NCBI GenBank assembly: GCA_017499595.2
Contig: CM039004.1
Location: forward strand, 992,001-1,056,000
Reading direction: 5' to 3'
DNA: 64,000 bases
Source: Psilocybe cubensis
Taxonomy: Eukaryota
Both the position numbers and the translations under genes were made by a program. The notes below the pieces were generated by a model. That model did no database searches. It was given only the letters and a program-made list of their open reading frames with translations, and was not told the origin of the DNA. Position 1 is the stretch's first letter, and each line of letters begins with the position of its first letter. Positions 7,335 to 64,000 of this stretch are shown here, piece by piece.

Positions 7335-8839
7335 ATGCCTGCTCGCAGCCTTGCCCACCTATACGAGACAATTATCGTCGACGTCGGGAATGTTCTTTTC
7401 ACATGGTCATCCAAAGGGCTCAATAACGCCGTCGACTCCAAGATTTTTCGCAGGATGGTCAGCTCTCAGATATGGGGGGATCACGAAACGGGAAAACTTA
7501 CAAACGATGAAGCTTATGCAACTCTGGCTAAAGAGTTTAAAGTAAGCAAAGAGGATGTCCGTTCGGCCATGATCAGCACGATAGGGACACTCTCACCTCG
7601 ACAAGAAATGTTCGACCTGATTCGATCCCTCAAAGCTGGGCGCAAAATTTATGCCATGTCAAACATGTCTGAACATTCGTGGAACATAGTAAGAAACGCA
7701 GGAGCTAAGCAATGGGAGATTTTTGATGATGTCTTCATATCTGGTTCGGTTGGATGTCGTAAGCCCGAGACGCCATTCTATAAACATGTTCTTCAAAAAA
7801 CAGGCGCCAAACCTTCGCACACTATCTTCGTCGATGATACCTTGGAAAACTTGGCGACAGCCCGTATCTTTGGAATCAGACCCGTCCTTTACGATAATTT
7901 TCCCAGCGTCGAAAGAACCTTAAGGAATTTGTGTGGCGATCCCGTTTCCCGAGCTAGAGCATTCCTTGTCAACAATTCAAAAAAGCACCAGTCTTACGCT
8001 TCCACTGGCGATATCATTCACGAAAACTTCTGTCAACTGATGATACTAGAGGCCACCCAGGACCCTTCTCTGGTGGATTATCTTACTTACGAGGCGGAGT
8101 GGGACTTTTTCCAAGAGTTAAGCGGACAGTTTACAGACGCAGTATTTCCAGCCGACCTTGATACTACATCCATGGCGTGGACGGTCATTCCCGACATTAC
8201 AACAGATGCTATCAAGCACAGAGTAATGGATAGAATGGTTGCGGACTTTTTGGATAACGATGGTATTCCATTCACCTATTTCGATAGAAATCGTGCCAGA
8301 AGAGACCACGGAGTCTGCGTAAACGTCCTCACTCTATTCTACGCAAACGGACGAGGCCATGAGCTCACACGGGCAACCGACTATGTTTATTCACTCCTCC
8401 AGTCTGGTGCTTATCTAGAGGGATCAAGATACTACAGGTCTCCAGAAATATTTCTGTAGTAAGTCTTATCGTACCACGTATTGTGATATCTTGCTGATAA
8501 ATCATAAGCTTTGTCTCTCGTTTATTGGAGACGTCTCCTCTTCTTGAACGTCGTATGGGAGATTTATTCAAGGAATGCTGCCGTCAGCGTATCGGAACCC
8601 CTGCAGACCCTTTAGCACTGGCCATGCGTTTGCATTGTTGCACGCGCTGTGGTCTTGATGCTAGTACCGATTTTAAAAGGCTCCTCGATTTACAGCAGGT
8701 GGATGGCGGATGGGAAAGCGGAATACTCTATACATATGGATTGGTAAATATAACAGTAGGTAATAGGGGTTTAACGACTGCGATAGCACAAAGGGCAATC
8801 ATAGAGTACCTCACTAAATTTGGCCCCATTCCGAGCTAG
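7335..8839 (+). CDS. HAD-like hydrolase fused to a class II terpene cyclase domain (AstC/DrtB/AncC-type drimane or monocyclofarnesyl sesquiterpene synthase)
   Basis: Exons 7335-8458 and 8509-8839 with a 50-nt GT-AG intron give 484 aa. HAD motifs are IIVDVGNVLF, MSN, RKP and FVDDTLEN. The class II motif is PADLDTTS (DLDTT at 8154-8168) and there is a QW-like motif LLDLQQVDGGW. Confidence 0.85.
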
Positions 8840-17009: not shown

Positions 17010-20000
17010 ATGACCGTCCCGCTCGCCTTTCTAGACGTAGCAACCTTGCCAAAAGGTCTTTCTCTCGGAGAACATTTTAGCAACCTCATTTCCAAGTCCC
17101 CTGTTCATTCCTTACTTGACTGTCTCGCATCTGGGGAGACCCCTGCCATTTTTTCTCCCGACATTCACAGACCTCCTTTACTGCACTCGGACCTACGTAA
17201 TTTTGTGGCTAATTTCGCGCTACCATCTGCTGCTCGTTATGGAGGTCGTCGTGCTCTCGGCAGAAATGATCGAATCATGGTGGTTTTGCCCTCGGGTCCA
17301 GAGAATGCATTGGCGCTATTGGCATTGAGTAATTATCATTCGTGCGCCCCAGTTAACGCGAGCTGCACCAGACAGGAATTGATGGACGATATGCGCCGAC
17401 TTGGAGCCAAGGCAATTATCACCACACCTGACATCGCGAAGCACCTCGACACGAAGTTGATCCAGGATGAACTCGATTGTGAGGTTATTCTTCTCCACGC
17501 ACGCTCGACAGGTCCCGCGGGGTTGTTCGACCTTTCTATTGCAGGTGGCCACCACTCTGCTATCACTCCTCCACATCCTTCCGAGGTCCATGGTCTCGAC
17601 GACATATCACTCATTCTTCACACATCCGGTACCAGTGGCAAAAAAAAGGTTGTGCGGTATTCTCTCCGAACGTTGTTGGTTGGAACTTGGTGTGTGGTAC
17701 ATTCTTGGAACCTACTTCCAAATGACATCAATTGTATGTGATCGATCCCTTCTTTCGGTTGGTTTATGCGCTAAAGTTAACTTAAGTGAATATGATGCCG
17801 CTCTTCCATGTCGGGGGGATAGTGCGGAACTTGCTTGCCCCGGTGCTCTCTGGAGGAAGCGCGATCATGTGTGCGGGGTTTGACCCCAACGCGTTCTGGC
17901 AATATGCCTTGGAACTCAGAGCTACCTGGTGCGTGCAGTTCATATCCGTAGGCCTAACATCTACCTAATCTAGTATTTTCATGTCTCTTTAAGGTATTAC
18001 GCTGCCCCGACCGTCCACCATGCAATTCTTGCATCGAAGCCAGATACAATGGTTCCATCAAAGGATCTGCGCATACGGCTCATATGTAATGCCGCAGGTG
18101 GCCTATTGCCGTCTCTTGCGTCAGAGTTGAAAGATACCTTTGATGCTACTGTATTGCCTTCATATGGGATGACAGAGTAAGCCGAGGGCCCCTCAATCCC
18201 CTGTTGGGAAAAATTTATTAACAGTTTATTCAGATGTATGCCCATCGCCACCCCTTTGACGAATTATAAATTGGATCGCCCAGGTTGTTCTGGCATTGCA
18301 TGTGGTCCATACCTCTCTATTCGATTGCCCAATGATCTCGAACGTGAAGTTGGTCCGGGGAAAACAGGGGCTGTTTGTGTTCGCGGACTTCCGACATTCG
18401 ATGGCTATGAGATTTCACCAGACATTCAAATACCCCTTGACACGTCGACCTTCTCTAGCGAAGGGTGGTTTGACTCAGGAGATGTGGGATACATGGATGA
18501 AGACGGGTATGTCTCGGCCTTAAGAAAGTATATTCCATTCTGATAAGCAGAGCAGGTATCTATACATCACGGGACGGTCCAAGGAAATTATCAACAAGGG
18601 AGGGGAGGTCGTCTCTCCGTTCGAGGTTGAAGAAGCCATTGTGACAGCAGCCAAAGATTATGTGAAGGTTTGTCTGGTGTTTTAGATTCATTCATGCCCC
18701 AAAATCTCATGGACCTTCCAACATAGACCGCCTTAGCGTTTTCTGTCGACCACGATGTCTTGCAGGAGACTATTGGAGTGGTTATTGTGCCCGATCAGAG
18801 TCAACCGCGCGTGGGTTTACGCCAGTTGCATGATATGCTCAAGTAATTATATCCCTTTCCTTCCACTGTGGAGAGCCGTGCTAACGGCAAGAAGAGGTCA
18901 TCTACATCCTTCAAAGTGGCCTTTTGCCATAGTATTCATGGACGATGTGCCCAAAAATAGGTGCCTCGATGCTTTAACGATTTAAACTTGGATTACACTT
19001 ACAATGTCTTTTTTAGTGCTGGGAAGCCTCTCCGCATAGGGTTATCGAAACGTTTGGGGATCGGTCAACTGACTGACGACCACTCTATTCTCAGTCGACA
19101 TTTCGAAGCCGTTGCACCGCCGATTACGCAGTCAATCCATAGTCCAATCCCATGCTCCACAGTCTCAGTTGATCCTAGTGTTGTCGACAGTGCTTTCCGA
19201 AACATCCCTAAGGTTGTCGACTTCGCCGTGGAGCACCATTCCGACGGCTCACTAGATGCGTATATTTCTGTTGAGCCGACCTGGTCATTCTCGGCGAATG
19301 AGGTGAAACAGTTAGTCACTCCTCGTTTGCCCGGTTACTCGATTCCAAACCAAATTCACATCGTCAACGGTCCTCTTCTTCGAGATGGCTCTGGTTCTCA
19401 TGACTTCAGGGCAATGGAAAGGCAAGCAGCGAAATCTGCAAATATCCAGATGACGAAGCGGCAGATGCTTGTGCGGGATATTGTAGCAGAGCTCCTCAAC
19501 ATCGACCCTACCCATATCCATACTGGCTCCGACTTTTTCCTTCTTGGTGGCAACTCACTTCTCCTCGGAAAACTATCACACAGTGTCAGGCGCCAGTCTG
19601 GAATTAATATTGGAATTACTGAGCTCTTTAGCGAAAGCACTATTCATGGCATTGCTGCATTGTTGGAAGAACGGGAGGCCGCAAACGCGGATACGGATAC
19701 GGAAACAAAGGCACATGGTGACCAGGAGAAAGTCAAGGACCCTAACACTCGTAATTCGTCCACCACAGCCTTTGGAGATGATTACGATTTCGAACAAGAT
19801 GCTGAATATGCTGAAACTAAAAGGTCACGAAGTCAGGACCATCCTCTATGCCTCATTGTTCAAGCCATTCCTTTTGTCTTTTTCTATCCACTGAAGACAG
19901 CCTGGACCTGTAAGTCTGCCGTTATTGACTTCTGGTTTATGCCGTGTTCTCAATTTTTTGTAGGGTCTATGCTAATTTTTATGTTGTCCTATTTGGCACC

Positions 20001-22879
20001 GTTGATTAACGGGACATATTGGGAACGAATGGTGGCATTGTTGACTTCAATCCTGGTTGCGAGAGTTACAGCACGTATCGTCTGTCCTCTTACTTCCATC
20101 CTTTTCAAGTGGATTGTCATCGGTCGGTACAAACCTGGAACCTATCAGACGTAAGGTCGCTGTTTCTTTGAATGCGTAGACAATGCTAAATGTTTTCTAG
20201 TTGGTCGACCTACTACCTCCGGTGGTGGATTGTCAACCAAAGCATCAGGTGAATAATTTATCCCATTCATAATAAGTGGTATACGTTATTTATATGCTTT
20301 GAATCTCTAGAATATCTGGAAGGGGAATTTTCGCTCTACATCCATCATTGACAACATTGTACTATCGTCTGCTAGGCGCGAAGATTGGAAAGGATGTTCA
20401 TATTGACGAAGACACTAAATTATTCGAGTGCGATCTCCTTGATCTTCGAGACGGCTGCCGCCTTCAGACATCCACCATACGCGGCTTTGCTGTTGAGAGA
20501 AATGGTTACTTCACCCTTGCACCTGTCACGATCGGACGCAAAGCTTTTGTTAACCAGTACACACACATTGCGCCAGGCTCTCTTATTGATGATGGCTCGG
20601 TATACGGGCCTCACGCTTCTTCATACGACGACCCCTCTCCCAGATCTTATGCCGCTTATAACGGCACTCTGTTGGCCAAGCCATCGCTAATCTTGCAGAT
20701 GCTTATCGCGTGGCCCATAATTCTGATCGTTGTATTCCTGTCATGTAAGCCATCCAATCTTTCGATCAACGTCATGCAACTTATTTTGGTATAGATGTAC
20801 CCTGGATGGCTGCTATTTTTGTAATGGTCAACCAAACGCATATCACTCGTGCAGGCCTGAACGACTTGGAATCAGTCATTTATTGGTTTGCAACTCCTAA
20901 ACGAGTGTTATTCCATGCCTTGTCCCGGATTGTTCGAGCCCTCCTGAGACCCATTATCAGGGTTGCACTTGGTATAATGGTTAAACGCTTGTTAGGCCTT
21001 AACTCCGAGACTACATCCTCCCGCGATTCTCAGTTGGTGCTTCTAAGGCGATATATAAACTCCATTTTATTGTCCCAATCGGAGCTCAAGGACGCATTTT
21101 CAATTGTTGGCACGCATTACGAAGTGGTTTCTGTAAGAATATTCAAATTCTTAAGTAATCATTTTCTGACCGCCACCTTTCGCTTTTCATAGATGGTATA
21201 CAGAGCAATGGGTGCCAAAATCGGGAAACGCATTTATTGGCCTGGCTCAGGCATTGCATGCATGGACCCGGAATTGCTGGAAATTGGTGATGATGTTGTT
21301 TTTGGTTCACGATCTGCGCTCGTAACGACGGATCGTCTTGGATCTGGGAAAATTGTGATCGAAAGTGGAGGTATATATTCGTGCCCGCCTATTTTTAATT
21401 TTATGTCCACTTCTGATTGCATCCGCCTTTTCTAGCAATGGTAGCCGACCGAGTAGTTTTATTGCCCGGAACGAAACTAGGGCGTCGGGCAGTGATGGGC
21501 TCCGGTTCTCTAGGAAAGCGCAACGCGGAATACCTCCCTGGTTCAACGTGGATGGGCAATGGTTAGTTGTCAAGCTTTATTGAGATATATATCGCTAATG
21601 CTGAAGGTACAATAGACAAGGGCGAAGCTGTATGTCTCGTCAAAGGCTCCAAAGAAGCAGGCAGTGGGGACACTTCCACACCTTTTGGACGGGCATTCTA
21701 CCAGAAAAAGGCAAATTACTTCGTTTTCCCATATACGATGATTCTTGCTATAAGTGTCATTATGACCGCCGTGTCAGCAGCGTACTGGTCCATCAGCGCC
21801 GTAGGGGCAGCGCAAGTGCTCAAGGATGCTCGAATTCATCGTTTCCACGTCTTCCGACCTCGCTGGTACTTGTTCGGGGTCATCTATGGAGTCATTTCTG
21901 TCTGTTTTATTGTCATTCTCACGGTTCAGGGGTTATTCTCTATCATATGGGTTATTGTAGCCAAGTGGCTCATCATCGGGAGACGTCGCCCTGGAAGGTA
22001 CGATTGGGATCAAAGCAGCTACTGCCAACGATGGCAACTTCACTTGGTCGTTTCTCGCCTCATGTACAAAGGATATGGCTATGGTGGTGTCCTTGCGCCT
22101 CTAGCGGGTTCTGCCTACATTGTATGGTATTTCCGGGCATTAGGTGCCGTAATTGGCGACAATTGTGCAATTTGGGCTGGCGGACGCCCAGGTCTAATGA
22201 CAGAGCCCGACCTCGTCGAGGTAAGCGATCCTTAATACATCTACATGTCGACGACGGACTATCTGTTAACACTGTCACTTTGTCAGCTTGGCGATGAGGT
22301 AAATTTGGATGACTGTTCTGTCGTGGCGCATATCAATTCTCGAGGAAATTTCGCACTGAATAGACTCAAGATCGGAAACCAGTGAGGCTTTTTCTTCGGA
22401 TCTTTAAATTTTCCTTCTGGTCTTCTAACACCCTGTCATCAAGGTGTGCTATGCGGTCGGGCTCGCGGCTACTATCCGGGGCCTCGATGGAGGACAGCAG
22501 TATGCTCTGCGAGCACACTCTTCTTACGTCCGGGGACGTCGCCGACGCCGGTGTAGCGTACTACGGCTGGCCAGCGAAGAGGCTGGAGGACGCAGCGGAT
22601 TCAAATGCAGGGGCTGTAAAACCTGCATTCCTGACATGCCCCATATGCCGGCGTTTTCCCAAAGACAGCGCAGTTAGTGGATGTGGGCATCTCTTCTGTC
22701 ACAGGTGAGCCTTGTTCGACGTTCTGAAAACCCCGATTACGGCCACTGAGGATGGATTTAGTTGCATTTCTCGATCGCTATCAAGAAGAAAATACTGCCC
22801 TGTATGCTTCGAACCATCTACGCTCAACCAGCTGAAGAGAGTGCACCTATCTTTCGGGGCAGAGACACCTCAGCATTGA
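17010..22879 (+). CDS. Membrane-bound NRPS-like protein: adenylation domain, carrier (T) domain, three TM/left-handed beta-helix units (Pls/polymalate-synthetase-like) and a C-terminal C3HC4 RING finger
   Basis: About 17 GT-AG introns, ~1,600 aa. A-domain motifs are LHTSGTSGKKK, MPLFHVGG, SYGMTE, FDSGDVG, ITGRSKE and PKNSAGK. The T motif is DFFLLGGNSL (19531-19560). The three repeated units read YRLLGAKIG, YRAMGAKIG and FRALGAVIG, with KWxxIGR motifs and hydrophobic helices. The RING is CPIC-x11-CGHLFCHSC-x10-CPVC. Confidence 0.85.
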
Positions 22880-38586: not shown

Positions 38587-39416
38587 AGTGGACAAAATGT
38601 GCTTTGTAAATGCGGATAAGTTGATTTTGATGCATCATTCCCTTTTTGTTGCCTCCAGCTAGTCTGAACAAGCTCTGGTCACTAATTGATGTTGAATTTA
38701 ATGAGAGCGATGAAGTTCATTGCTTCGGCTTGCGTGATAATATGTCATCCCGAAGGATGATCAATCTAGTCAACCGCAACATAGTCGAGGAGTTTCCAAG
38801 TCAGCAAAAACAAGTGACCAATATTTCTTCTTCGACTCCCATATACAACCTATGACATTAATAAACGAAAAGATGCAGCGGGCGCTGCCTATTGATATCA
38901 TGGACACAATCATCGACGCAGTCGGGGAACAAGTTTTGACCTCGAGTACATCCCACGAAGCTCAAGCATACTGGCAAACACTCCTATCATTTCATGCCAC
39001 ATCAGTAGAATGTCATCGCCAATCCATGGCACATATCCTTAAGCGTGTCTCAATAACGCTCACTGGCTATGGGGGGTGTAGGAATCGCCTCACAGAATTG
39101 TGTGAGCTTATGAACACTTCGCTTTCCTTGGGAATGGGAGATATTGCACGGCACATCAAAGACGTCGAGTTGGTTTTTGAATCATCAATTCGACCAGTAC
39201 AGGGGGCCTTACTTGGGCTAATGGAGTGCTCACCAGTTGAACACTTGATGAATGACGAAATCGTTTCCGACTTCCTCACCCGATTACATGGGCCAGTATA
39301 CGGAGTTGAAAACCTCTCATTAGTCGTTCATTCTAAGGAGACTCAAGGGTTCTTTCCCAGAAAGAAGGGGATACACTGGTCAACTCTATCCGCCAGATTT
39401 CAAACAGCCTTCCGAC

Positions 39417-39809
39417 TGTTGGAATACGGACTTGACATTCACTCACTCTTTTATTTCCACCTTTCTTTTCCTTTCCATTTTTATACCATAACTTTCCTCA
39501 TTCGACATTCGGGACATTGGGCCCGAAAGCCCCTGTTCATTCATGAATCCAGTAGTCCTCCTTCCTATTGCGTTCAACGCATCACCTTCCATATCCCTCA
39601 TCAACTTCTGTAGCTACGAGAGGCTCACATATACGGACCAGTTCTGTTCTTAGTACCTCAGTCTTTCTTCCCTTCGACTGAGGTACATTTACTTTTCCAT
39701 TGTTCGTACAGAGTAGCTAACGTAGTCTACAGGCTTACCGTGTCATTAGGTTAACAATATAGTCTTTCTTCCCTTCGACTGAGGCTTACCGTGTCATTAG
39801 TTTTCTTCA
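39417..39809 (+). repeat. 5' LTR (393 bp)
   Basis: TGTTGGAATACGG...TTTTCTTCA; no difference from 44629-45021 was seen by eye. Confidence 0.97.
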
Positions 39810-39821
39810 GGTTATGGGCCC
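39810..39821 (+). other. Primer-binding site of the half-tRNA-iMet type
   Basis: GGTTATGGGCCC directly abuts the 5' LTR and resembles the copia/Ty5-type PBS complementary to the tRNA-iMet anticodon region. Confidence 0.8.
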
Positions 39822-39940
39822 CGAACGCGCCTGAATCAAACAAGACACCATCGGACTCAGTTATCAGACTCACCTAGCATATTTTCAAGAGATCTCAATT
39901 CTCTCTAGCATCAAACCCAGACTCACTCTTATTTCTTAAA

Positions 39941-42900
39941 ATGTCGGCCATGGCAGGGGATGTCCCAAATACTGCCCATACGACCATCAATAACATCACG
40001 ATGAGCACAAAAATCACCCCGGCAAATGCAAAAGTCGATCATATTGTCAATCTTGAAGGAACATCAAACTTTATTGCTTGGAGAGACGACATGCGGAATA
40101 TTTTGAAAGATTGTGGAGTCTATGGGCATATAGAGGGATCCGAGAAGAGGACTGCGCGATATCCAGTCTCGCCAAAACCCACAGAACCCGCAGACGACGC
40201 TTCAGACGATGTGATTGCAGCCTATCGGAAATGGTGGAGCGATGATGACAGTGCGAAAACACTGATAACCAGAAAGGTGTCGGCACTTGTTAAATCGAAC
40301 TTGAATGCAGGAGAAGATGTAACCGCGCGAATGGTATGGAACCAGATAATGACCAGATACGCGCGTGTAGACATCAACGCTCAGTTCGCCATTAAAGAGA
40401 GGTTAGCGTCAATCAAGCTCAAGGATTATACCGAGATCGAGAAGTACCTTGGCGAATTTCGCAGTGGCAGAGAACGACTTAAGGATATGGGTGTTGAATA
40501 CCCTGAAGGGGACATTATTCATCATATCATCCGGGGCTTACCATCGTCGGGCGCCTGGCCAAACTTCAAGCAGCTTATGATCCAACTCTACCAGGACACA
40601 CTGGACCGCGACAAAGCAGCAACGGATGAAGGGCGCAATCCATCAGCACCAAATACCGCTTTAGAAAGGATCACAGCACGACTTACCATCGAATGTCAAC
40701 GTCTTGAGGCAGAGGCCGGGTCAAAGCGACATCCACCAGGATCCGAGTACTCCAACTTTTCAAACGACAATCGTCCCATTGCTAAACATGTCAATAATCC
40801 AAATGGCGTGAGATGCACAAACTGTCGTAATCGCTCTCACGATAAAGATCATTGTTGGGCAAAAGGTGGTGGGATGGAAGGTCAAGGCCCAGCTTATCGG
40901 GCGGCGCTTGCAGCTAAAAAGACAGAGTCGGCGTCTGTTGCAATTGAAGCTGGTTCCCTGGAAAGTGGAGAAATCTCTTGTGCACTTATTGAAGAATTTG
41001 TTGATGACGACGTACAATCACCTATTGCGGCATCCGCAAACACAAGATCCTTTCTGTCGACGTCAATCCTGTTGGACTCTGGTGCAACATCCCATATAAT
41101 CAAATCGCGTTCATTATTCCACACATATTCCGAGAGTGATGCTCGAAATGTCACAACAGCGAACCTTGGGACTTTGAGAACTCAAGGAGGAGGGACGTGC
41201 ATACTTAATGTCACTTACAGGGGAAAGTCCATCAAACTCAGGCTAAACAACTGCCTTCATGCTCCCTCCGCCGCAGTCAATCTGCTCTCCGTCAGTCGTC
41301 TTTTCATCGCGGGCATTGGTTGCAACTTTCAACCCGAAACGGGCATTCACCTTTCTAAAAAGGGTGTCGCGTTTGCTTCCGCCTCGCTAATCAATGGCCT
41401 ATTTGCAATGGACCATACTACATTTGTTCCTACAAACAATGATTTTGCTGCTGAGCGTGCAATGTATGTGAAAGTACCGGAGACACTTCACCTTCAACAT
41501 CTTCGGTTGGGGCACCCTGGTGAACAGGCGACGCGTATGCTTGTCCAGAGAGTCATGAAAATCCAAGTTAAGGACGAGAACATCAAATGTGAGCCTTGCA
41601 TTATTGCCAAGCATACGGCTACTCCACATCCGCCAAGATCACTTGGCCAGCGCGCTTATCAACCACTTGAACTTATTGTGGCCGATACCTGCGGTCCTTT
41701 CCCTGTGCAAACGCCTCATCACAAAGAATTCTTTGTTGCTTTCCGTTGTTCTGGTATGAAAGTTAATAACATACAACTTACTGCAGACAAAACGGCCGAT
41801 ACAATGCTGGAAGCCTTTAAGATTGTTCAGGCCCGCTGGGAGACACGCACTGGGTTCAAAATTCAGAGGTTTCGATGTGATGGTGGACCAGAGTGGAAAG
41901 GATCTTTTGCAGCTTACCTACTGGAGCAAGGTATCGAACAAGAGGTCACGCCGGCACGTGAACATTGGATGAACGGGGAAATAGAACGCTTCATGCGTAC
42001 AGTCCAAGGTCGAATGCTAGCCATGTTAACAACTGCTCAACTACCTTTGACTTACTGGGGTGAAGCCGCGTTGACTGCCTCGTATCTTCTCAACATCACA
42101 TCCACCGACGAACACGGCATCACTCCCTTCGAAAATATGTACCACAGGCCGCCCAATTTGTTGCATCTTCGTGTGTGGGGATGTCGGGCATTTGTTCATG
42201 TCCCGGAAGAGTAGCAATCAAAGTTGGGCGCGAAATCTGTTCAATGCCGGTTCATGGGTTATCCTCCAGGCGGAAAAGGCTACAGGTTTCGTCATCTTGA
42301 AAGTGGACATTTTTTTGACTCCTCAAACGCTATGTTCGATGAGAACATGCCGTCCGTTTCTGCTGTTAATAATGCTTCTTCTCCAATAGATTATTCATCC
42401 TTACCCTTTTATTCTGAAATTTTGCATTCTTCTGATTCTACCTCTTCTTCTTCTGTTCCGAATTTTGTTTCAAATTCAGTTCCAAATCTTGTTTCTACCC
42501 CTTCCGACCTAGATGCACCCGAGCTACTTCGCTCTTCTTCTTACCCTTCCTCTTCCTCTATTTCTTCTGTAGATATTGAAGTCGTTCCTCCCACAACTCC
42601 TGTCCAGTCATCCTCTCAAAATATTCCCCAAACCCCTGCCCCTCGTTGTGTCTTACCACCGCCTCGCTCTTCCTCCAGAGAACGTCATCCATCATCTCGC
42701 GGACTGCTTTACAATCAGCTTCGAGAGACTGAAAAGGCAAAAAGCGATTCTATTATTGCATCTCGCAGGGCCACAAGTGCTGAACGGTCCGCGACGGTTC
42801 CACCATCCAACGAGCAAGGGGGCGAGTCAAATCCGTTTACATCTCTCTGCTCCGTTGGATTGCTCAATTCTTCATCTCCCTCATATGACATCAGCTCGGA

Positions 42901-44621
42901 TACCTCGTTCGTGTCCCTCGATGTTGAAGATTATCTTGCAAGGGACAAAGAAGCCTTTTTTGAAGCCCTTCTACTCTCAGTCAGGAGCGAGCACAGACGA
43001 AACCCCAATTCTCCAAATTACGATCTCAAAATCCCACCTGCAAATTATGTCGAGGCAATGCAACGTCCAGATGCAGATCAATGGAGAAATGTCATCCAGA
43101 AAGAACTCGACATGTTCAAATCAATGAATGTATACGTTGACGAAGAACTTCCACTAGGCGAACATACGATTGGGTGTCGTTGGGTCTTTGAGTTTAAAAT
43201 CGACGATAATGGACAACTGATATACAAAGCCAGACTTGTTGCGCAGGGCTTTTCTCAAAAGTATCTCATCGATTATCACGAAACTTTCGCACCTGTGTCA
43301 AAATCTGTCAGCACCCGCGCCATAGTGGTACATGCAACACTGAACGGATGGCATATCGAATGCTTTGACGCCACGAGAGCCTTCCTGTGGGGGGATTTAA
43401 CGGAGGTGATTTACATGAAATGTCCTTCGGGGTATTCTTCACCATTCCCGAAGGGTGTCTGGAGACTAAAGAAGTCACTGTATGGGTTGAAACAGGCAAG
43501 TAATGTGTGGTATGTCCTCATCCGTTCAACGCTGCAGAACATTGGCTTCAAACGGTCGGAAAAGGATCACGCCACCTTTATTTTTGAAGGAGTATGGAAT
43601 GGGGAACAGGTCAAGTGCTGGCTATGTATTCATGTCGATGACGGTTTAGGGGCGTCCAATTCCAAGATGTTTCTTGATCACACCAAATCCGAAGTCAACA
43701 AGCGTTTTGGCATCAAGGATCTTGGTCCATTGCGATCTTACCTAGGAGTGCAGTACGAGCGGAACATGGATACTCGTGAACTCTGGATTCATCAAACTCC
43801 CTACATTGAGAGCGTCCTCGATGAATACGGTCTCCTCAATTGTAGTCCCGTTTCAACACCACTCGATGCCAACAACGTATTTGGCCGTGACGACGACGTC
43901 TTCCCAGAGATTCCAGACATTAAAATCACCTTCCAGCGTCTCATCGGCTCTCTCCTTTTTATTCAACGACACTCCCCGCCCTGACATTTTGATAGCCGTC
44001 CTGCTTTTGTCTCAACACGCATCAAATCCCCAACCAAAGCACTTCGCTACAGCCAAACGTGTACTTTGATACTTGAGTGGTACTCGCAATTATCGCTTAT
44101 ACTACGGTGGAAAAATGGCATCGCACCGCTTACAGGGTTACTCTGATGCTGACTGGGCTGGCAATAAGGACTCGCGTGCATCCATTTCAGGTTTTGTATG
44201 GATGATTGCTGGAGGGCCGCTGAGCTGGTCTTCTAAAACTCAGACCTGCATAGCCACAAGCTCCACGGAATCTGAATACATTGCGCTAACGCGAACTGTA
44301 CAGGAAGGGTTGTGGTTATCATCCTCGCTTTTGTGTCTTCGCATCGATTGCCCAAATCCGCTAGTGGTCGCCACCAACAACGAGGGAGCCAAATCTCTGT
44401 GCGAAAACGATTCATCCCATTCGAAAGCAAAACATATCGACATCAGATATCACTTCATTCGATCCCACATTGAATCAAAATCTTTCAGCATCCTTCACAT
44501 CCCAGGAAAAGAAAATCCGGCAGACATACTCACCAAATCTCTTCAACGAGTCAAGTTTCTCGAAGGTGTCACCAGACTTGGACTTATTGATCCTAAAGCG
44601 GTTAAGGAGGCGATGCGTTGA
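39941..44621 (+). pseudogene. Copia gag-pol polyprotein, interrupted
   Basis: Contains the zinc knuckle CTNCRNRSHDKDHC, protease LLDSGATSH, integrase D(ADTCGP)-D(RCDGGPE)-E(NGEIER), RT YKARLVAQG/KSLYGLKQ/HVDD and RNase H YSDADW/SSTESEY/KHIDIRYH. Lesions are TAG 42212-42214, a +1 frameshift in the C-run 43974-43977 and TGA 44067-44069. Confidence 0.93.
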
Positions 44622-44628
44622 GGGGGCG
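44620..44628 (+). other. Polypurine tract
   Basis: GAGGGGGCG lies immediately before the 3' LTR. Confidence 0.75.
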
Positions 44629-45021
44629 TGTTGGAATACGGACTTGACATTCACTCACTCTTTTATTTCCACCTTTCTTTTCCTTTCCATTTTTATACCA
44701 TAACTTTCCTCATTCGACATTCGGGACATTGGGCCCGAAAGCCCCTGTTCATTCATGAATCCAGTAGTCCTCCTTCCTATTGCGTTCAACGCATCACCTT
44801 CCATATCCCTCATCAACTTCTGTAGCTACGAGAGGCTCACATATACGGACCAGTTCTGTTCTTAGTACCTCAGTCTTTCTTCCCTTCGACTGAGGTACAT
44901 TTACTTTTCCATTGTTCGTACAGAGTAGCTAACGTAGTCTACAGGCTTACCGTGTCATTAGGTTAACAATATAGTCTTTCTTCCCTTCGACTGAGGCTTA
45001 CCGTGTCATTAGTTTTCTTCA
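44629..45021 (+). repeat. 3' LTR (393 bp)
   Basis: Direct repeat of 39417-39809, followed by the TSD CCGAC. Confidence 0.97.
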
Positions 45022-45295
45022 CCGACATGCTATTGAATCTCCATGTCTGACATATCTGGGCGTCAGAAATATCTTGGACCTTCCTTATGAGATTCTTCGT
45101 GGAACAAAAGTAAAAGTTTTGAGTTGGAACCTGGATGATAATATACTGCGGAGCCACCCTCGGGATCCGGTAGATTGGTCTCCATTTTCAGCTTCTTCAA
45201 GTTATTTGCCCTACCCGGATATCGAATACCTTGATACAAATTGCTTGCACACGCTACCTGAAAATCCCGCTCATAAGTCCATAGAAGGGTTGAAA

Positions 45296-61050: not shown

Positions 61051-63221
61051 ATGCCTATTTCTTCAAAGGTTCAACAGTACAAAGGAGACGAAGCCCTTTT
61101 GAACATTCTTAGCGATCTCTCATGGAAAATACTTTGCAAAAGACCTTTCCGATGGCAATTAATAGCTGCCGAGGCAATTTTGCAAGGAAAAGATGTGGTT
61201 CTTGATGTTGGCACGGGTTGCGGGAAATCACTGTGCTTCTTGCTGCCACTGATGCTATGTAAATCTGATATGTCAATCACCGTATCACCATTGACTGCTC
61301 TGATGATTGACCAAGTACGTATCAAATTTTGTAATAGGAGAATTAATATGTTATTAATAATTCATTGGACACCTACTAGACATCAAGCGCTGTGTTAAAC
61401 ACTGTAGCTGTTTGTGCACAGACAGTTTCTCAAGTCGGAAAAGATCAGCTGTATTCCGACATTCTTAGAGGGGTGTTTCAACACATTATGGTCTCGCCAG
61501 AGATTGCAGCTTCACCTGAGTTTCACAAATTTGTCTGGTCGAAGCCAGAAATCACAGACCATCTTCGGTCTGTAAACATTGATGAAGCCCACTGTATTAC
61601 CATGTGGGGTGGTAGCTTTCGGCCAGATTATGGCAACTTGGGCATCTTGCGAGGTCGAATTCCTGTCAATGTACCCATTTTAGCGGCATCGGCAACATTA
61701 CCAGACCATGTTCTCAGCGATGTCTTAGGAAAGCTACGTTTGGCAAATCCAAAAATGGTCAGGGTTAGTAACGCTCGACCAAACATTGCATTATCTGTCC
61801 GTACCATGGAGTTTGACAATGCGTCAAAGGCTGATTTGCGGTTTTTAATTCCACAAAACGCAAATAACTCGGACGACATACCTGTTACTCTTGTATATTG
61901 CAATCAGCGTGCAACAACAGAGGACTGTGCTGATCGACTTCGAGATTGGGCAGAAGAGCAAAGCATACCTCGCAATACCATTGCTTTCTACCATTCTTGC
62001 GTTGGAAATGACCGTAAACGCGAAATTGAACAGCTGCTTTCTGATAATAAAATCCGGATTGTCATCTGTACAGAGGCATTAGGAATGGTGCGTCTGTATG
62101 ATTTAATTTTACCAAATCTAATAACATACCTCAGGGATGCGACCTCCGCAATATTGCTCGAGTTGTCCTATGGGGGTTGCCTGAAACCTTCTGTTCTCTT
62201 GTACAGAGAATTGGTCGTGCAGGAAGAGACCTCAATACAGATGCTGAGGCAATACTAATTGTTAATCCAGGAATAGCAAAGGGTGAAATTACTGAGGATG
62301 CATTTAACGATACTATTGTCATGGCGGCTGCTGAAGGCGAGGCATTAAATCGGCCTATTAGTGAACAAGAACTGGATCGCTCTGTCGAAGCACTAGATGA
62401 AGAAGGAGTCCGAATTGCAAATGCAGCTGAGTCAGATAACGAAGACGCTGATGCTACGTTTGCGATGACACCTTCTGTACGGCACTCCAAAGGCAAACGG
62501 AAAGTGCAAACAAAAACAAACACTCACCTGCAAGAAACTCGGGCCTTGCTAAATTTTGTGATCACAAAAGAGTGCCGCCGAAAGATCTGGGATGCATTCT
62601 TTAATAATGCAAGCAAACGTGAGTGTCAAGTTTCTTTTATTCTAATATTGTATAGTACTTACCTGAACATTAGTTCAGCTTATATATCAGGAAACGACAA
62701 CGTATAACCCCACTACACATACTTCACGGTGCTGTGACAACTGTCAGCCTCATTTATTTCCATTGGACAATATAGTGCGACATCAACTCACCAGCTTAAA
62801 GCGTGGACGCAAGAAAAAAATGCCAGAAGAAGAACAGAACTATATTCGAAATAAACTCTTCAAGTTCCGAGAGCATAATCTGATGGACGCGGTTTACAGC
62901 AACCTATCAAGCTTTTCAAGTAGTATGATTATCTCCGATGAGGTAATTAATAAGATTGCAAGCTGTGGCGAGCTAATCAGAGATTATTCTCACCTCCGTC
63001 AAATTGTGCGATGGGGATTTGGCCATGATTCAAGCATTGATGGACCTAACAAGTGGGGCTTAATGCTTATGGAGGAACTAGAGAATATCAACAATGCTCT
63101 TGAGAACAGGCGAGTAGAAAGTTCAGAAAAGGAGAAGTCGAAGGACTCAACAAGTGTGCCTGCACCGTATGCTTCGATATCATTTGCAGATATATTGACA
63201 CCAGAAAACTTTTGTGATTAG
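61051..63221 (+). CDS. Compact RecQ-like SF2 helicase (probably transposon-borne)
   Basis: Four exons (introns 61315-61379, 62088-62134 and ~62619-62674). Motifs are GTGCGKS, SPLTAL, IDEAHC, ASATL, FYHS, CTEALGMGCD and QRIGRAGR. The RecQ Zn ligands are CRR..CCDNC. Confidence 0.9.
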
Positions 63222-64000
63222 TTGTATATACTTAACTCGTTTGCGATGCCCTGTACAATTGATACATAATAATCACCATCTGCACCTATAGGAAACTCTT
63301 CGTTGTCCATCAACAAATCCTCTATACTCATACAAAGATCTGAACCAATATCAATATCATTTCCGTCCTCAAACACACCTTTGTCATTCGCATTTTCGTA
63401 TACCGACTCTTCTGATAAATTTGATGATTTAGTCCCTCGATGCGTAGTCTTAATCTTTGCATACTTGAAGTTATGATATGCTGACGGTTTGTTTGCATAT
63501 TCCGAGCCGGCTTGAAGAAGGTCACGCGCTTCAACACAGTCGTCATTATTTTCACGTTTTGGTGTATAGGTTTGCAATGATTGAGCTTCCAAATGGGTAC
63601 GCAAGGTGGCAATGTCTGTTGCTGTTGTCGGAGTGGTGTGGCTAATGCTATTAAAAGGAGTGGAGTACTCCTTGTGCATGCGCCGCATCACATCGCGTAA
63701 TGCAAAAATGCAAACGGAGACCATTGAAAGCCACTGCCAACTGCGGTTTGACCCTTTGGCACTATAAATAATCTCATAACAAAAATCAGCCCATGATACA
63801 CAGAATACTATTGACTGACTGACAACCGACTCACTTTTAGCCAGAAGTTTTGATGCTCCTGCAATAGATCCATTTCTTTGAACCCATCCACTTTGCCACT
63901 GAGATTTGCAAGCCAGTTGTTGAGCCATGCGTCTCTGACAAAAACACAGTTAGCGAGGCGATATTGAAAATCACAACAACAACTTACCGAAGTGTCGAAT
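63218..64000 (-). CDS. 3' part of a DUF6589-like putative transposase protein (truncated by the window edge)
   Basis: The spliced reading is DAWLNNWLANLSGKVDGFKEMDLLQEHQNFWLK|IIYSAKGSNRSWQWLSMVS..H..DIATL, followed by an acidic tail. I recognise this pattern from DUF6589-type proteins found next to RecQ-like helicases in basidiomycetes. Confidence 0.65.

Follow-up and report, generated by a model that had tools for sequence, protein, structure and literature searches.

A predicted position-dependent hairpin over the splice donor of an intron inside a Ty1/copia LTR

Every LTR element must make two identical repeats act differently at the two ends of its RNA. HIV-1 uses an upstream enhancer in U3 and a poly(A) hairpin, and we know of no strategy of HIV-1 or HTLV-1 in which a U3 anti-donor stem acts on an intra-LTR intron. 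Hairpins that sequester a splice donor are familiar from cellular pre-mRNAs, among them artificial hairpins in yeast, tau exon 10 and SMN2, where a local stem lowers U1 access and splicing; these hairpins are present in every transcript of the gene. The closest described viral case is that of prototype foamy virus. In the part of Schrom et al. 2013 (PMC3694450) drawn on here, the splice donor of this virus lies in R and U1 binding to it suppresses the 5′ poly(A) site; polyadenylation at the 3′ end is activated by 13 nt of U3, which change how the RNA around the donor folds (PMC3694450). The masking principle is therefore already known, because it has been published for foamy viruses. A limited literature search returned no description of an intron within a retrotransposon LTR, of the processed copy of such an intron-bearing unit, or of donor masking by U3 in LTR retrotransposons.

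Here we describe a hairpin in a retrotransposon LTR located in the window, by which we mean the whole 64,000-nucleotide stretch of DNA that was analysed. We give roughly even odds (a probability of about 0.5) to the reading that this hairpin is a conserved RNA switch lying across the U3/R border of a Ty1/copia LTR, where it would mask the LTR's own splice donor according to the position of the repeat in the RNA.

The element and its intron-bearing LTR

The hairpin is housed in both LTRs of a Ty1/copia LTR retrotransposon of 5,605 bp (39417-45021), whose LTR termini read TGTTGG...TTCA. Its parts are:

39417..39809, + strand: 5′ LTR, 393 bp, TG...CA, 100% identical to 44629-45021
44629..45021, + strand: 3′ LTR, carrying the second copy of the hairpin at 44865-44898
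39412..39416, with the second copy at 45022-45026, no strand: target-site duplication CCGAC, 5 bp, by direct reading
39810..39835, + strand: primer-binding region GGTTATGGGCCCCGAACGCGCCTGAA, abutting the LTR end
39941..44621, + strand: gag-pol in copia order (gag, protease barrel, pre-integrase, integrase SH3, RVT_2)
44620..44628, + strand: polypurine tract GAGGGGGCG, directly before the 3′ LTR

The paired TG...CA LTRs with their target-site duplication, together with the domain order, identify the element as Ty1/copia (Pseudoviridae-type). The Pfam domains Retrotran_gag_2, Pol_BBD, gag_pre-integrs and SH3_retrovirus all precede RVT_2; the integrase core and RNase H gave no Pfam detection at E <= 0.001. 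The gag-pol frame is broken twice, by an in-frame TAG at 42212-42214 and by a frame change between 43984 and 44073. For the element's reverse transcriptase, the closest cluster in the protein atlas is mostly basidiomycete, a weak hint as to the host. Blastn found no further copy of the LTR or of the element in the 64-kb window.

The 26-nt primer-binding block that follows the LTR is common to several families of the same genome, as seen in a read depth peak at 39776-39843 and loose ends at 39835/39836, and it recurs at the 19 metagenome LTR junctions introduced below. It may be complementary to the anticodon arm of initiator tRNA-Met; no tRNA genes were found in the window or in 20 loci. The half-tRNA priming described for Ty5 and Drosophila copia, in the part of PMC5371799 drawn on here, is a likeness in that these elements belong to the copia-type group. 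A second likeness is the primer-binding site next to the LTR, which here starts GGTTATGGGCCC and whose complement has a CAT that would be flanked as in the initiator-tRNA anticodon loop. This likeness to Ty5 and copia (PMC5371799) concerns the element and not the hairpin.

Relatives were collected by scanning metagenome contigs with a 19-nt pattern that spans the LTR end and the primer-binding site (PBS) and is blind to the hairpin. The scan yielded 24 loci, comprising 19 LTR-PBS junctions, four GC-rich chance matches outside LTRs and one locus of unclear class; the same junction pattern had no match in viral contigs or prokaryote genome contigs.

L011, L012, L013, L017, L022 (n=5): LTR-PBS junctions with the intron design
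L001; L007 and L009; 11 loci of a short-LTR family (n=14): LTR-PBS junctions without the intron design
L003, L010, L016, L019 (n=4): GC-rich non-LTR chance matches
L014 (n=1): class unclear

The five junctions with the intron design share the window's LTR order, which runs TATA, C[CT]TCA(+1)GT, A1, a GT..AG intron of 55-57 nt, B1, spacer, A2-B2 and PBS. They are far from the window in protein sequence, at 21-33% identity over gag-PR-INT and 28-40% over RT, and their U3 regions, loops and introns cannot be aligned with its own. L011 and L013 are nearly the same sequence, and L017 shares 89.6% identity with L022; the five loci therefore amount to three further independent families only, one of them with two sub-lineages.

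In the window, the relevant part of the LTR is laid out as follows:

39627..39634, + strand: TATA-like box ACATATAC, with TATA about 30 nt upstream of 39660
39660..39682, + strand: unit A1, predicted first exon, 23 nt, repeated exactly at 39761-39783
39683..39732, + strand: predicted LTR intron, 50 nt, GTACAT...GCTAAC...TACAG, bounded by GT and AG, with CTAAC as branch motif; 101 nt further downstream the flanking units are joined exactly without it
39733..39749, + strand: unit B1, 17 nt, pyrimidine-rich, ending in TAG and followed by GT, repeated at 39784-39800
39750..39760, + strand: spacer x GTTAACAATAT, rich in A and T and containing a TATATA-like motif, proposed as candidate poly(A) signal; its first bases resemble those of the PBS (GGTTA)
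39761..39800, + strand: A2-B2, an exact copy of A1 and B1 in spliced form, followed by 9 nt and then the LTR end

In its GT...AG ends, branch motif and length, and in the trace of its removal that the A|B junction would represent, 39683-39732 looks like a spliceosomal intron. Its predicted donor, GTACAT, has no G at +5 and is thus weak. The same intron layout occurs in the three further families, with introns of 55-57 nt, and the exact intron-less A-B junction is present in every family. Despite the wide divergence among families, A1/A2 and B1/B2 within one element differ by 0-1 mismatch, and six substitutions that separate L017 from L022 are mirrored in both copies of the units. These exact junctions and the concerted evolution of the units suggest that the LTR intron is spliced now or was so recently. 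The homogenisation of A and B further implies that the processed copy is frequently renewed; reverse transcription of a spliced leader would be the simplest route. The TATATA-like motif in the AT-rich spacer is present in four of the five families.

Two other arrangements were considered and rejected. A large intron that would stretch from the first donor through A2 fails as a general rule, since A2 of L011 ends in AA and not AG. The leader motif GGACTCAGTT (39858-39867), considered as a conserved partner of the exon end, has a complement of at least 6 nt in the window only and no consistent partner in the relatives.

Where transcription begins decides how much of the hairpin lies in U3. The first-pass annotation had placed a putative start site at 39660, and the TATA spacing, the start motif and the 5′ edge of A2, which agree in 5/5 families, all lend indirect support to a predicted start there, as distinct from an observed one. 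In 5/5 families the distance from an upstream TATA box to the equivalent A is 30-34 nt. The motif C[CT]TCA(+1)GT is found at 6/6 intron-bearing loci versus 0/14 intronless loci, and CTCA(+1)GT presumably matches the initiator consensus. In 5/5 families A2 starts exactly at the A of this motif with a different base before it; in the window the base preceding A1 is C and that preceding A2 is T, so the homology of the two units starts at 39660. With its 5′ edge at the predicted +1, A2 resembles a cDNA copy of an RNA 5′ end. Across families, this start would put 5-7 bases of the stem in U3.

The hairpin and its conservation

The hairpin is composed of three parts:

39653..39663, + strand: left arm, with 39653-39659 in U3 and 39660-39663 as the first four predicted transcribed bases; it includes the start-like motif CCTCA(+1)GT
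39664..39675, + strand: loop, 12 nt, all-pyrimidine
39676..39686, + strand: right arm, spanning -7..+4 of the 5′ splice site GAG|GTACAT (GT at 39683-39684)

The left arm GTACCTCAGTC (39653-39663) is the exact reverse complement of the right arm GACTGAGGTAC (39676-39686), and the 12-nt loop TTTCTTCCCTTC is pyrimidine throughout. The perfect 11-bp inverted repeat over positions -7 to +4 of the donor at 39683, reported in the first-pass annotation, is thus matched exactly in the sequence, and it is matched again in the 3′ LTR, where the arms lie at 44865-44875 and 44888-44898. In another strain, 29 of 95 reads carry a 1-nt deletion at loop position 39670, and the length of the loop is therefore variable.

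As RNA, the 34-mer folds at -17.0 kcal/mol (z -5.47, equalled by 0/200 shuffles) and, with flanks (39640-39700), at -18.5 kcal/mol (z -6.33, 0/200 shuffles). RNA beginning at 39660 retains a 4-bp stem only, at -2.0 kcal/mol for a 27-mer and -4.4 kcal/mol (z +1.44) for a 61-mer. The same annotation had set a 4-bp stem in RNA from 39660 against the full stem in RNA that contains U3, and the computed folds of -2.0 to -4.4 versus -17.0 to -18.5 kcal/mol agree with it. In a 293-nt 3′-LTR context the stem is present in both the MFE and the centroid fold, and the structure of a 286-nt 5′ RNA is not significant (z +0.69).

The two LTR copies are the sole perfect inverted repeats of at least 11 bp with a loop of 3-20 nt in the 64 kb, and such a repeat is found there twice because the hairpin sits in a repeat. 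One occurrence per 64 kb would be unremarkable, since 45 of 200 dinucleotide shuffles of that length contain at least one (mean 0.32). Within a 393-nt LTR it is rare, arising in 10 of 20,000 shuffles. What truly speaks against chance is that distant relatives carry the hairpin at the same place. A search of Rfam across 39350-40000 returned no family at E <= 1, and a bacterial promoter and terminator scan, whose models are not relevant to a eukaryote, also found nothing. A covariance model of the hairpin retrieved only its training sequences, their reverse strands and weak matches in the A2 copies.

All five intron-bearing relatives carry a hairpin at the same place, with stems of 8-11 bp, and at 6/6 intron-bearing LTR loci, counting the window, it is longer than any other perfect inverted repeat of the final 250 nt. 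By comparison, none of the 14 intronless junctions has an inverted repeat of at least 7 bp inside the LTR; the 8-bp repeat of L007 and L009 falls outside it. For the comparative folds, RNA with 15 upstream bases was set against RNA from +1:

Window: stem 11 bp; -18.5 kcal/mol with upstream bases, -2.3 from +1
L012: stem 8 bp, a bulge, then 3 more; -14.5 kcal/mol with upstream bases, -4.5 from +1
L017: stem 11 bp; -20.2 kcal/mol with upstream bases, -7.8 from +1
L022: stem 11 bp; -19.1 kcal/mol with upstream bases, -7.2 from +1
L011 / L013: stem 10 bp; -14.6 kcal/mol with upstream bases, -5.4 from +1

The folds of the four relatives have z-scores of -3.8 to -4.4; 1, 1, 0 and 0 of 200 shuffles reach the same stability. 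If the RNA begins at +1, the pairs that disappear cover donor positions -3..+2 in L012, L017 and L022 and -3..+4 in the window and L011. The expectation that the stem be kept in related LTRs that keep the intron is thus borne out at 5/5 loci of the hairpin-blind scan, each of them far more stable with the U3 bases.

In an alignment of the stems, 84.6% of 65 cells are paired, as against 29-41% when the partners are slid by 1-3 columns. Three of the 13 stem pairs are changed on both sides and 7/13 never vary. Within the core, the pair formed by U3 -3 and the last exon base is U-A in L011 and C-G in the others; further out, the pair of U3 -6 and intron +3 is U-A in the window and C-G in L011. The 8-bp core ACCTCAGT / ACTGAGGT is invariant in four of the five distinct sequences. 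Because 7/13 pairs never vary, the covariation rests on few events among five distinct sequences. The compensatory changes sought in related LTRs are borne out in part: three stem pairs are altered on both sides, but the column-shuffle control is not significant, as the observed pairing is equalled or exceeded in 102 of 500 shuffles and the count of both-side changes in 170 of 500. Each family adds 2-3 Watson-Crick pairs to the core at differing positions, with a simulated chance of 0.10-0.22 per family. Between L017 and L022, 0/22 stem bases differ, compared with 3/16 loop bases.

Two further loci bear on the stem. In loose ends of another LTR family of the same genome, AGTC of the window's left arm is replaced by AGCC, and GACT in the A2 copy of its right-arm bases by GGCT; on the assumption that both ends come from one LTR, a further compensatory pair would result. 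The stem is gone from L001, a relative of L011 with one intron-less unit, where the base at position -1 is G and inverted repeats of at least 6 bp are absent. It is, as a single case, an apparent natural control for the association of stem and intron. The arms also overlap motifs that could be constrained for other reasons, namely the start motif on the left and, on the right, the exon end and donor and possibly the branch-like ACTGAG in the A2 copy.

Position-dependent masking and its alternatives

Taken together with the predicted start, the fold suggests that processing of the two identical LTRs differs between the ends of the RNA. The final 5-7 bases of U3 would serve as an anti-donor, complementary to -3..+2 (or +4) of the LTR's own 5′ splice site, while the first 3-6 transcribed bases would pair with exon bases just upstream of the donor. 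RNA made from the promoter of the 5′ LTR, with its inferred start at the predicted +1 (39660), would be without the anti-donor; its donor would be open to U1 snRNP binding and the 50-nt intron removable, and we infer that such splicing takes place in the present day. Where U3 is part of the RNA, as in the 3′ LTR or in read-through from outside, a stem of 10-11 bp would form once the donor is made, within a dozen bases, and would hide the donor and so block splicing. One pay-off would be that the intron copy of the 3′ LTR is retained in RNA destined for reverse transcription. A second, by analogy with foamy virus and through a putative link to the poly(A) site, would be that U1 suppresses the LTR poly(A) site at the 5′ end and that this suppression is relieved at the 3′ end only. 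Control of the poly(A) site or strand transfer, neither of which figured in the first-pass annotation, may be the real pay-off.

A more tentative extension, which we think somewhat unlikely, holds that each round of replication rebuilds the LTR from a single RNA whose 5′ end has been spliced and whose 3′ end has not. The 5′ leader would lose intron 1 (39683-39732) and a putative intron 2 (39750-39800, that is, spacer x plus A2 plus B2), leaving A-B-U5-PBS. This leader would be identical to A2-B2-U5-PBS, and strong-stop cDNA could anneal to A2 at the 3′ end of the RNA. A2-B2 would thereby be freshly copied from A1-B1, and the hairpin would keep U3-A1-intron-B1-x of the 3′ LTR intact. Such rebuilding would explain why the spliced copy starts at +1, why A and B evolve in concert and why the U3 anti-donor is indispensable. 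In 5/5 families a GT follows B1 and the pyrimidine-rich B2 has YAG at its end; no G stands at +5 of the putative second donors, and the spacer is similar to the first bases of the PBS. Five reads of X11 and one X7 contig contain a joint of 39770 to 39671, a step back of 100 after which the second unit is again followed by the intron start. Speculatively, both this joint and the single-unit L001 fit the rebuilding of the LTR, and recombination between repeats explains both equally well.

If the hairpin has a role in replication, that role might also be direct. It could close A1 in the 3′ LTR so that strong-stop DNA anneals to the open A2, or act as a pause or transfer signal for reverse transcriptase, with its overlap of the donor being secondary. 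A1 and A2 are indeed identical acceptor candidates, of which the long stem closes A1 only, A2 forming 4-5 bp; products of transfer to the wrong unit exist in the form of L001 and the 39770 to 39671 joint, and the concerted evolution of A and B implies copying of these units by reverse transcription. Recombination between direct repeats could yield the same by-products, however, and the stem reaches the donor to at least +2 in every family and to +4 in two, which is needless for hiding A1. The two families that reach +4 moreover differ on both sides at U3 -6/intron +3 and form the -7/+4 pair differently. We consider this account distinctly unlikely. Transcription might instead start upstream of the stem. 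Every RNA initiated in the LTR would then begin with a TAR-type hairpin that adjusts donor use or translation in general, and the 5′ and 3′ LTR would behave alike. The start at 39660 is only predicted, and the spacing of 24-27 nt between the TATA box and the first base of the stem falls within the start-site range of many eukaryotes; in L017, the 7 nt before A2 match those before A1 at 5/7 positions. This reading, which we regard as unlikely, is opposed by the beginning of A2 exactly at the A of C[CT]TCAGT after a differing base, and by the TATA-to-A spacing of 30-34 nt, each in 5/5 families. Strong cap-proximal stems are, in addition, expected to hinder translation, and one of -15 to -20 kcal/mol would be expected to do so for gag.

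The least probable of the alternatives, in our judgement, is that the hairpin has no function as RNA and that conservation acts on each arm by itself, or on the two as a palindrome in the DNA (with a start motif in the left arm and the exon end and donor in the right, or with a protein site or an antisense start motif), the pairing being partly coincidence. Most of the pairing is, after all, sequence conservation, given an 8-bp core that is invariant in four of the five distinct sequences; the shuffle controls are not significant, and the right arm read on the opposite strand gives the same start-like motif. Yet L011 alters both partners of one core pair together, the stem extensions are specific to each family and fall at differing positions, and no consistent TATA box was seen on the opposite strand in an inspection by eye of the window LTR and the relatives' sequences. 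Exon positions -4 to -7 of a donor are normally unconstrained, which also argues against separate conservation of the right arm. For the left arm, the start motif occurs in 0/14 intronless LTRs with the same PBS, and a generic promoter need therefore does not explain it. Masking of the donor by position remains the reading that we prefer.

Relation to described systems

About 35 bases seem to solve the asymmetry of the LTR, in that a few bases of U3 mimic the pairing surface of U1 and close over the LTR's own donor. This masking would be tied to a particular LTR design, with an intron and its processed copy kept identical by concerted evolution. LTR annotation and gene callers can be led astray by LTRs that have introns inside them and exon copies in tandem. 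If the rebuilding of the LTR were true, this would be a retroelement life cycle that requires position-dependent splicing inside its own LTR.

Unlike the donor hairpins of cellular pre-mRNAs, the stem described here would form or not depending on where transcription began. HIV-1 and HTLV-1 face the same problem of identical LTRs that need different reading. The LTR of HTLV-1 likewise carries a splice donor, according to the part of the preprint drawn on here (bioRxiv 10.1101/2023.01.28.526022), whereas the donor of HIV-1 lies outside the LTR and is hence absent at the 3′ end, as set out in the portion of PMC3694450 considered.

The likeness to prototype foamy virus, again within the part of PMC3694450 drawn on here, extends to three features. 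In both cases the donor lies inside the LTR downstream of the start (predicted here) and is thus present at both RNA ends. In both, a few U3 bases (-13..-1 there, -5..-7 here) reduce access to the donor in U3-containing RNA, in our case in silico, where the fold around the donor depends on U3 in 5/5 families (-14.5 to -20.2 versus -2.3 to -7.8 kcal/mol). Finally, the same DNA behaves differently at the two ends, as it would here. The systems differ in that the output measured in foamy virus is the choice of poly(A) site via U1, with no short intra-LTR intron in the account given (PMC3694450), and in that the fold there consists of two stem-loops whose rearrangement was shown by SHAPE (PMC3694450). 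Here, by contrast, one simple predicted hairpin in a copia retrotransposon would act on an LTR intron of 50-57 nt that lies beside its spliced copy. If confirmed, it would extend a mechanism so far documented only in foamy viruses to deep-branching, probably fungal, copia retrotransposons.

Tandem units and variant LTR layouts

In both LTRs of the window's Ty1/copia element (39660-39809 and 44872-45021), as well as in the metagenome loci L012, L017, L022 and L011/L013, we observed an intron-bearing unit in which the predicted exons flank the intron (A1-intron-B1), followed by a short AT-rich spacer and then by an exact spliced copy of the unit (A2-B2). Despite the divergence among families, the two unit copies within each of these elements differ by only 0-1 mismatches, and six substitutions that distinguish L017 from L022 are mirrored in both copies. 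The unit copies therefore show concerted evolution, a pattern that requires them to be re-copied repeatedly.

Positions 39750-39800 of the window form a possible second intron in the LTR. Directly after B1 lies a GT, as part of GTTAAC in the window and of GTAATC, GTATAA, GTATAA and GTAGCT in its relatives, and B2 is pyrimidine-rich with a YAG at its end in all five families. The candidate donors carry no G at +5. In addition, the start of the spacer, where the candidate intron would begin (39750), resembles GGTTA, the start of the primer-binding region (PBS). Removal of this putative second intron would yield a leader identical to A2-B2-U5.

Related elements display other arrangements. Five reads of sequencing run X11 and one 130-nt contig of run X7 contain a joint from window position 39770 back to 39671 (100 nt), so that here the second A unit, too, is followed by the intron start. 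The relative bearing this joint is diverged, with 19 differences in 100 nt, and is a tandem variant whose two units each carry the intron. In L001, a relative of L011, the TATA box and start motif of the LTR (oriented 1290-1380) lead straight into just one A-B unit, which lacks an intron, and the hairpin that covers the intron donor in the window (39653-39686) is absent from this LTR. The loci L007 and L009 present the terminal part of pol, a polypurine tract, a 176-bp LTR and, directly after it, a PBS. This LTR begins TGTTGGAATG, as does that of the window, and lacks the intron design; both loci are thus two elements in tandem with one shared LTR.

Insertion site, pol frame and neighboring genes

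Three other runs labelled as the same species carry the left flank (39300-39416) at single-copy depth and in long contigs that continue past 39416, and the leader of the window's element (39844-39945) is almost absent from them, at a depth of ~6 versus ~30. An LTR piece identical to the window's (39445-39810, 0 differences) occurs in these runs at ~2x the flank depth. Taken together, these observations suggest that the insertion is polymorphic and that further copies of the LTR lie at other sites. Insertion may have taken place within the 3′ part of a gene. One ORF spans the boundary between flank and element and has no Pfam match:

38852-39613, ORF of 253 aa, crossing from flank sequence into the 5′ LTR

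The pol frame contains an in-frame TAG (42212-42214) within the integrase SH3-like domain and changes between 43984 and 44073, ahead of the last ORF. Despite this interrupted frame, no difference separates the two LTRs (100% identity), and both copies of the target-site duplication are preserved. Two readings fit: a very recent move of a defective copy assisted in trans, or some form of read-through at the pol interruptions.

Elsewhere in the window, ORFs with AMP-binding and phosphopantetheine-binding domains at 17010-20154 constitute an NRPS-like gene split by introns. Two further features are as follows:

7335-8459, HAD hydrolase
63218-63928, DUF6589 piece

A shared LTR end and primer-binding region

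The LTR end together with 26 nt of the primer-binding region (39799-39835) is common to several otherwise different families of the same genome. Reads cover this segment at 5-6 times single-copy depth and show loose ends at 39799 and 39835/39836, and the same LTR-end/PBS junction is found in 19 metagenome LTR loci. One family (L002, L004, L005, L006, L008, L015, L018, L020, L021, L023 and L024) combines the window's PBS with a short LTR of ~130 bp that begins TGTTGAGA. Even in loci of 8-12 kb, tblastn at 1e-5 detected no similarity of this family to the window's gag-pol, and it may be non-autonomous.

The PBS looks complementary to the anticodon arm of an initiator tRNA, which would make it a putative case of the 'half-tRNA' priming that Ty5 and copia use.
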